Source: Escherichia coli
GTDB lineage: Bacteria > Pseudomonadota > Gammaproteobacteria > Enterobacterales > Enterobacteriaceae
DNA: 64,000 nucleotides
Assembly (NCBI RefSeq): GCF_041886205.1
Contig: NZ_CP169029.1
Reading direction: 5' to 3' (one strand)
Positions within the stretch are counted from its first letter, which is position 1. Every line of letters starts with the position of its first letter. Below the pieces are notes generated by a model. That model saw nothing but the letters and a program-made list of their open reading frames with translations, made no database searches and was not told where the DNA came from. Below are positions 25,927 through 26,181 of the stretch, one piece after another. A program made the position numbers and the translations under genes.

Positions 25927-25930
<4 letters not shown>

Positions 25931-26181
25931 AAGAGTTTTTATTTTTATTTCACTCCACAGTCGGCGTCATACAAACCCGCAAAGCGTTGCAGGCAGCGGG
26001 CATGACTTTTCGCGTCAGCGATATTCCCCGTGATTTACGCGGCGGCTGCGGGTTATGCATTTGGCTGACCTGTCAGCCCGGCGAGGAAATACAATGGGTG
26101 ATCCCTGGGCAGACCGAAGCGATATATTGCCAGCAGGGCAGCGACTGGCTGTGCGTGGTGCATTACGATGCAGAAGCGTGA
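25927..26181 (+). CDS. Small 84-aa protein translationally coupled to yjiL
   Basis: ATGA overlap with the yjiL stop; cysteine-containing small protein; no family assignment possible from sequence alone. Confidence 0.4.

Follow-up and report, generated by a model that had tools for sequence, protein, structure and literature searches.

The window analysed here is a 64,000-nt stretch of Escherichia coli DNA (NZ_CP169029.1), in which the small gene ytiA has mdtM, yjiN, yjiM, yjiL, espX6, and yjiK as its neighbours. The features on which the argument turns are the following.

yjiM: 23981..25153, plus strand; double-cubane [8Fe-9S] cluster anaerobic reductase with the HGD-D fold (NF040772, PF06050).
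yjiL: 25157..25930, plus strand; 257 codons; ATP-dependent activase/reductase of the BcrAD_BadFG family (TIGR00241, PF01869).
yjiL–ytiA junction: 25915..25930, plus strand; GAGGA Shine–Dalgarno sequence at 25915-25919, ytiA ATG at 25927-25929, yjiL TGA at 25928-25930.
ytiA: 25927..26181, plus strand; 84 codons followed by a TGA stop; DUF3343 / PF11823 (Se_S_carrier).
ytiA variable 3′ tail: 26110..26181, plus strand; codons ~62 to 84; start of a divergent haplotype.

The original prediction placed here an 84-codon ORF overlapping the yjiL stop by 4 nt (ATGA), and the sequence at 25927-25930 reads exactly so; reading upstream, the GAGGA Shine–Dalgarno sequence lies 7 nt before the ATG. This ORF is a known, already annotated E. 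coli gene, ytiA. The segment is matched by 5,385 of 5,426 complete E. coli genomes, and RefSeq has a CDS at this position in all 25 genomes sampled evenly down these matches, under the name ytiA in K-12-like genomes and with the product given as “DUF3343 domain-containing protein” or “putative Se/S carrier protein”. Since the CDS is present in every genome sampled, the 84-codon ORF is the annotated gene itself and, being in RefSeq already, it adds nothing as a sequence feature. The protein matches Pfam PF11823 over residues 4-59 (E=8.4e-14; 51.3 bits, with a cutoff of 25), and no NCBIfam model matches it. At 84 aa here and 78–89 aa in its orthologues, YtiA is a small stand-alone protein, as are members of PF11823, for which some 80–100 aa are expected. 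The database search gave 139 homologues of YtiA, and the E. coli chromosomes of the collection examined have one DUF3343 locus each.

Could so short an ORF be open by chance, or be an artefact of annotation from which no protein is made? Direct expression data for ytiA were not found in the searchable literature, and its length alone is not significant, since the ORF listing holds dozens of ORFs of at least 40 aa that overlap real genes in this region. What lifts ytiA above chance is the Pfam match and the homologues, together with the behaviour of the sequence itself. All 50 uninterrupted sequences keep the +1 frame open, and no other frame is open in more than 10. Entropy by codon position is 1.23 at the third position versus 0.58 at the first and 0.43 at the second. 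Pairwise dN/dS has a median of 0.21 (residues 1–60, 0.165; tail, 0.43), and GC3 is 0.61, beside 0.60 for yjiM and 0.30 for the AT-rich DNA downstream. Against a Pfam match, a dN/dS near 0.2, this codon-position pattern, the uniformly open frame, and a confident AlphaFold2 fold, the notion of a chance ORF can hardly be correct, and the comparative data have effectively refuted it already. These comparisons show that ytiA is a genuine gene under purifying selection. Two other ORFs at this place, an antisense one of 87 aa (26053..26316) and one of 54 aa in the +2 frame, were considered and rejected; neither has a Pfam match, and in relatives neither frame is kept open.

Toward its 3′ end, the gene runs into sequence that departs from that of K-12. 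Identity to K-12 is ~97% up to ~26110, then 70%, then 53%. The dS is 0.04 for codons 1–60 of ytiA versus 1.75 for codons 61–84, and the megablast match to K-12-type genomes ends at window position 26137. Beyond ytiA there is a 319-nt AT-rich spacer and then a gene for a 755-aa pentapeptide-repeat protein (26501-28768), annotated in O157:H7 as the T3SS effector EspX6 (espX6); yjiK-yjiJ, downstream, have 80% nucleotide identity to K-12. From these alignments, a divergent haplotype can be placed at 26110-31105, starting inside ytiA at about codon 62 and carrying espX6 between ytiA and yjiK. The earlier description of ytiA as immediately preceding an AT-rich pentapeptide island is thus right as to the spacer and the pentapeptide gene that follow, but the divergent segment begins inside ytiA itself. 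The junction of the type seen in the window is present in 639 of the 5,385 E. coli genomes (~12% of complete genomes), and haplotypes differ in the sequence of the YtiA tail as well as in its length, the protein having 84, 85, or 88 aa.

The arrangement of ytiA with respect to yjiM and yjiL is far more constant than its tail. A YtiA profile built from 21 orthologues and scanned against one genome per species gave 49 loci, from Escherichia, Citrobacter, Klebsiella, Raoultella, Kluyvera, Kosakonia, Phytobacter, Atlantibacter, Cedecea, Superficieibacter, Enterobacter, and Hafnia. In all 49 of these species-level genomes (Enterobacteriaceae plus Hafnia), yjiM, yjiL, and ytiA occur in the same order and orientation, so that ytiA is co-located and co-oriented with both double-cubane enzyme genes throughout; yjiN and mdtM upstream and yjiK and yjiJ downstream are variably present around them. 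The same trio was reached independently, from YjiM, in Yokenella and Trabulsiella, where the flanks (a LysR regulator upstream and MarR/FAA-hydrolase genes downstream) are unrelated to those of the other loci. Two distant metagenomic Enterobacterales-like loci on low-GC contigs, with a YjiM identity of 74–81%, also have the full yjiM-yjiL-DUF3343 locus. The three-gene unit that had been suggested for the window therefore extends over the 49 genomes, Yokenella, Trabulsiella, and both metagenomic loci.

The junction between yjiL and ytiA is conserved as well. At 55 of 57 loci the end of yjiL and the start of ytiA overlap, the overlap being 4 nt long in 43, 1 nt in nine, 8 nt in two, and 11 nt in one; an 18-nt gap occurs in one distant lineage only, represented by two near-identical contigs. 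For four Kluyvera loci, the computed overlap of -175 is a script artefact, and the sequence reads ATGA. The proposal of translational coupling between ytiA and yjiL is well supported by this conservation. The frame downstream of yjiL could have been found lost in close relatives, which would have spoken against the gene, but the gene is whole in 46 of the 49 orthologues; a frameshift interrupts two of the others, and the end of a contig truncates the third. This persistence accompanies rapid divergence, in that identity among relatives is 53–79% for YtiA, 77–87% for YjiL, and 87–90% for YjiM, and YtiA is therefore evolving much faster than its neighbours.

A few irregular copies deserve a brief description. 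The only frameshifted ytiA copies are those of Citrobacter amalonaticus AUH_CA_2023_1 and Enterobacter sp. EA-1, in both of which the adjacent yjiM is also broken into several pieces; this is either whole-locus pseudogenisation or a reflection of low-quality assemblies. An IncC conjugative plasmid of Providencia stuartii (NZ_CP142096.1, ~3500-5240) has a truncated yjiM, an intact yjiL, and a DUF3343 gene. The trio is also found in Klebsiella and E. coli records labelled as plasmids, some of which are clearly mislabelled chromosomes. On one metagenomic contig (912-1297), a 48-aa ORF with the GIDSGST motif of the YjiL N-terminus precedes a DUF3343 gene, and to judge from the motif this looks like a yjiML locus that has decayed, with the small gene as the survivor.

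The two larger proteins can be assigned with some precision. YjiM, called dehydratase-like in the original prediction, is now to be classed as a double-cubane-cluster-containing anaerobic reductase, the model of that name (NF040772) scoring 532 bits with a cutoff of 350. The class is taken from this score because the published seven-cysteine spacing pattern has no exact match in YjiM, whose cysteines (C47-X18-C66-X18-C85-X29-C115-X164-C280-X28-C309-X32-C342) are spaced slightly outside the published ranges. YjiL matches PF01869 (E=1e-76) and the acyl-CoA dehydratase activase model TIGR00241 (364 bits). As to the yjiM start, the longest ORF begins at a GTG and gives 390 aa, and the RefSeq ATG lies 7 codons (21 nt) downstream and gives 383 aa. 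In the account of Jeoung and colleagues (PMC7317905), YjiM belongs to the class II double-cubane proteins and has YjiL as its partner; a third gene is not mentioned. yjiM is listed in the Fnr regulon (bioRxiv 10.1101/2025.08.18.670860), and double-cubane proteins are reported to co-occur with a selenoprotein system (Haft, bioRxiv 10.1101/2022.07.06.499078); no physiological substrate is known for any of them (PMC7317905; bioRxiv 10.1101/2022.07.06.499078). A promoter and terminator scan of the yjiM-yjiL-ytiA region found no consensus above background by which the operon might be delimited, and an Rfam search of 23500-29200 found nothing.

A DUF3343 gene is not present wherever the enzyme pair occurs. 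The nearest yjiML locus found outside the Enterobacterales, in the Clostridia species Acetoanaerobium noterae (NZ_CP154629.1, 5004-6938), has YjiM (64% identity to E. coli) and YjiL with no DUF3343 gene within 5 kb, and two distant HGD-D/activase loci likewise have none within 5 kb. Given these three loci, YtiA is not indispensable to all reductases of this kind. The Acetoanaerobium sequence suggests that the enzyme pair, but not the small gene, was transferred between phyla; 2 kb downstream of that yjiML there is a class V aminotransferase-like ORF. In the YjiM protein search, only Enterobacteriaceae appear among the best 120 matches listed, so that distant double-cubane loci lie beyond its reach; the YjiM sequences gathered are all above 64% identity.

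What, then, does YtiA contribute where it is present? The protein has five cysteines, at 41, 44, 49, 68, and 76. Cys41 is invariant in 50 of 50 ytiA sequences from this locus, and when 54 diverse family members with identities as low as ~20% are aligned, F8, P34, and C41 are the only residues that do not vary. The motif in the yjiL-linked clade is DIPRxLRGGC41GLC44, and Cys49, Cys68, and Cys76 vary among the ytiA sequences. Lin et al. (2015, PMC5322559) noted a single highly conserved cysteine in DUF3343, to which C41 corresponds. The AlphaFold2 model (pLDDT 92.8, pTM 0.83) has a strand-helix-strand-strand-(short helix)-strand-strand topology and is ferredoxin-like; in it, Cys41 would stand at the end of an exposed 10-residue loop (33-42) between strands 2 and 3. 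The best structural matches to the model are PII proteins, and these are weak; sequence and profile searches found no solved structure related to YtiA.

Because Cys41 is invariant and is placed at the end of this loop in the model, YtiA may well have the chemistry of a carrier. A different use of the cysteines should be considered at this point, namely that YtiA is a thiol-disulfide redox partner whose C41-G-L-C44 is reduced by YjiM or relays electrons in the manner of thioredoxin. The gene adjoins that of a low-potential reductase, and the CxxC is present in 49 of 50 sequences of the Enterobacteriaceae set. However, Hafnia and the more distant yjiL-linked members P0135 and P0138 (CGLS) have Ser in place of Cys44, many other family members lack Cys44, and Cys41 alone is invariant; the loss of Cys44 from several yjiL-linked orthologues weakens a CxxC role, and the predicted fold is ferredoxin-like, not thioredoxin-like. 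We regard a redox partnership as quite improbable.

The rest of the family provides the second line of evidence for a carrier. A whole-library HMM search gave 121 representatives. Among them, the nearest relatives outside the Enterobacteriaceae are again attached to yjiL, and on one short contig the YjiL C-terminus overlaps the start of the DUF3343 gene. Beyond about E=1e-9 the neighbours change, to a YedE-like Sulf_transp gene, to TusA with a class V aminotransferase, or to a TusA-DsrE fusion. All four distant annotated members lie in selenium clusters, with the following gene orders.

E. faecalis: xdh-mocA-sclA-selD-yedF-DUF3343-yqeC-yqeB.
Peptoclostridium acidaminophilum: yedE-tusA-DUF3343, near selD.
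C. difficile: yedF-DUF3343.
Fulvitalea: mnmH-yedF-aminotransferase-DUF3343-selD.

A location beside known selenium metabolism genes is thus a property of the distant relatives and not of ytiA. Apparent fusions of DUF3343 to HGD-D/activase domains were set aside, as the long multi-stretch matches are repeat-protein false positives. In the literature, DUF3343 has been proposed as a Se/S trafficking chaperone (Lin et al. 2015, PMC5322559), and the name of the Se_S_carrier family rests on gene neighbourhood only (PMC5322559). A STRING table for Slackia in the same paper ties DUF3343 to a “CoA-substrate-specific enzyme activase” and a “2-hydroxyglutaryl-CoA dehydratase subunit” (PMC5322559), and duf3343 is one of the top five genes by frequency of overlap with selD (bioRxiv 10.1101/2022.04.13.486033). 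The searchable literature yielded no biochemical study of YtiA or of any DUF3343 protein, no experimental account of YtiA interacting with YjiM or YjiL, and no mention of ytiA together with yjiL or yjiM.

The Se/S carrier reading for YtiA draws in part on the place of distant DUF3343 genes in Se/S relay clusters (selD, yedF, yedE, tusA, selenocysteine lyase). The same observation may be turned another way: YtiA could be a genuine protein, for example a general selenium chaperone for SelD, that is merely co-transcribed with yjiM and yjiL and is unrelated to their function. In other phyla, DUF3343 is paired with selD, yedF, and yedE and not with reductases; E. coli chromosomes have a single DUF3343 locus; and the sequence of YtiA is less conserved than those of its neighbours. 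However, the order of the trio and its overlap persist through complete turnover of the flanks in more than 50 species, which would be hard to explain if the three did not function together, and the closest relatives outside the Enterobacteriaceae are also attached to yjiL. Mere co-transcription is in our view unlikely.

We therefore turn to readings in which YtiA does serve YjiM and YjiL, keeping in mind that the gene order of the trio is an association, not a physical interaction. In one of them, YtiA would be a maturation or repair factor for the [8Fe-9S] cluster of YjiM or the [4Fe-4S] cluster of YjiL, to which it would donate sulfide, e.g., the bridging ninth sulfur. The double-cubane cofactor does have an unusual extra sulfide, the DUF3343 relatives adjoin cysteine desulfurases and TusA, from which cofactor assembly usually draws its sulfur, and both the conserved synteny and the invariant cysteine would be accounted for. 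On the other hand, no DUF3343 gene lies near the close Firmicute yjiML locus, most distant DUF3343 members are in selenium-utilisation and not Fe-S assembly clusters, and the double-cubane review (PMC7317905) mentions two components only. A role in maturation thus also seems improbable.

The interpretation that we favour, with somewhat more confidence than doubt, is that ytiA is the translated third cistron of an anaerobic yjiM-yjiL-ytiA operon and that its product, through Cys41, would be a Se/S carrier for YjiM/YjiL. In this scheme, translation of ytiA would be coupled to that of yjiL through the ATGA overlap, and YtiA would carry a selenium or sulfur atom, bound to Cys41 in the form of a perselenide or persulfide. 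The ATPase YjiL would charge the [8Fe-9S] double-cubane cluster of YjiM with low-potential electrons, and YtiA would give its chalcogen atom to the YjiM active site or take one from it; the open channel of the class II YjiM could admit a protein loop. YtiA would then be a protein-bound substrate or a product carrier, and the trio might reductively mobilise selenium or sulfur, e.g., by setting selenide or sulfide free for SelD or another acceptor. Selenium and sulfur are not separated by the sequence evidence as the atom carried. It is tempting to go further and to propose that the substrate or product of YjiM/YjiL is itself the selenium (or sulfur) on Cys41 of YtiA, the trio being an anaerobic selenide supply for SelD; this is a speculation that we put forward tentatively and consider rather doubtful.

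Even so, ytiA is a lead, since it joins the question of what the double-cubane [8Fe-9S] reductase works on to that of how selenide is handed over to SelD. The two questions are connected because the only DUF3343 protein of E. coli is strictly linked to YjiM/YjiL, and the family elsewhere resides in selenium clusters; YtiA therefore hints at what YjiM/YjiL works on. If selenium is indeed carried on Cys41, there would be a dedicated anaerobic selenide route for the selenocysteine of formate dehydrogenase and for selenouridine synthesis. E. coli is genetically tractable for examining the link between ytiA and YjiM/YjiL.

The closest known systems are three. The first is the DUF3343 / PF11823 family itself (PMC5322559), to which YtiA conforms in its size of ~80 aa, its above-threshold match, its invariant cysteine in P-x6-C-G, and its tight coupling to neighbouring genes. 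The typical member lies beside selD, yedF, yedE, tusA, or a selenocysteine lyase, whereas the genes for YtiA and its near relatives come after those for a double-cubane reductase and its ATPase; in addition, YtiA has a second cysteine (CGLC), with three more in Escherichia. The second is the TusA/YedF (SirA-like) relay proteins, which are, like YtiA, small and single-domain, which have one essential persulfide-carrying loop cysteine, and whose genes share neighbourhoods with DUF3343 genes. YtiA, however, has no sequence or Pfam relationship to them, and it has another motif and a predicted ferredoxin-like topology with weak PII matches. The third is the DCCP/DCCP-R pair of Carboxydothermus hydrogenoformans (PMC7317905, PMC9351452), to which YjiM corresponds as a member of NF040772 and YjiL as a member of the activase family; ATP-driven low-potential electron transfer would be common to both pairs. 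In contrast with DCCP/DCCP-R, a two-component system for which small-molecule test substrates are used, YjiM is of “class II”, a shorter form whose channel is open, and the enteric locus adds a conserved third gene.
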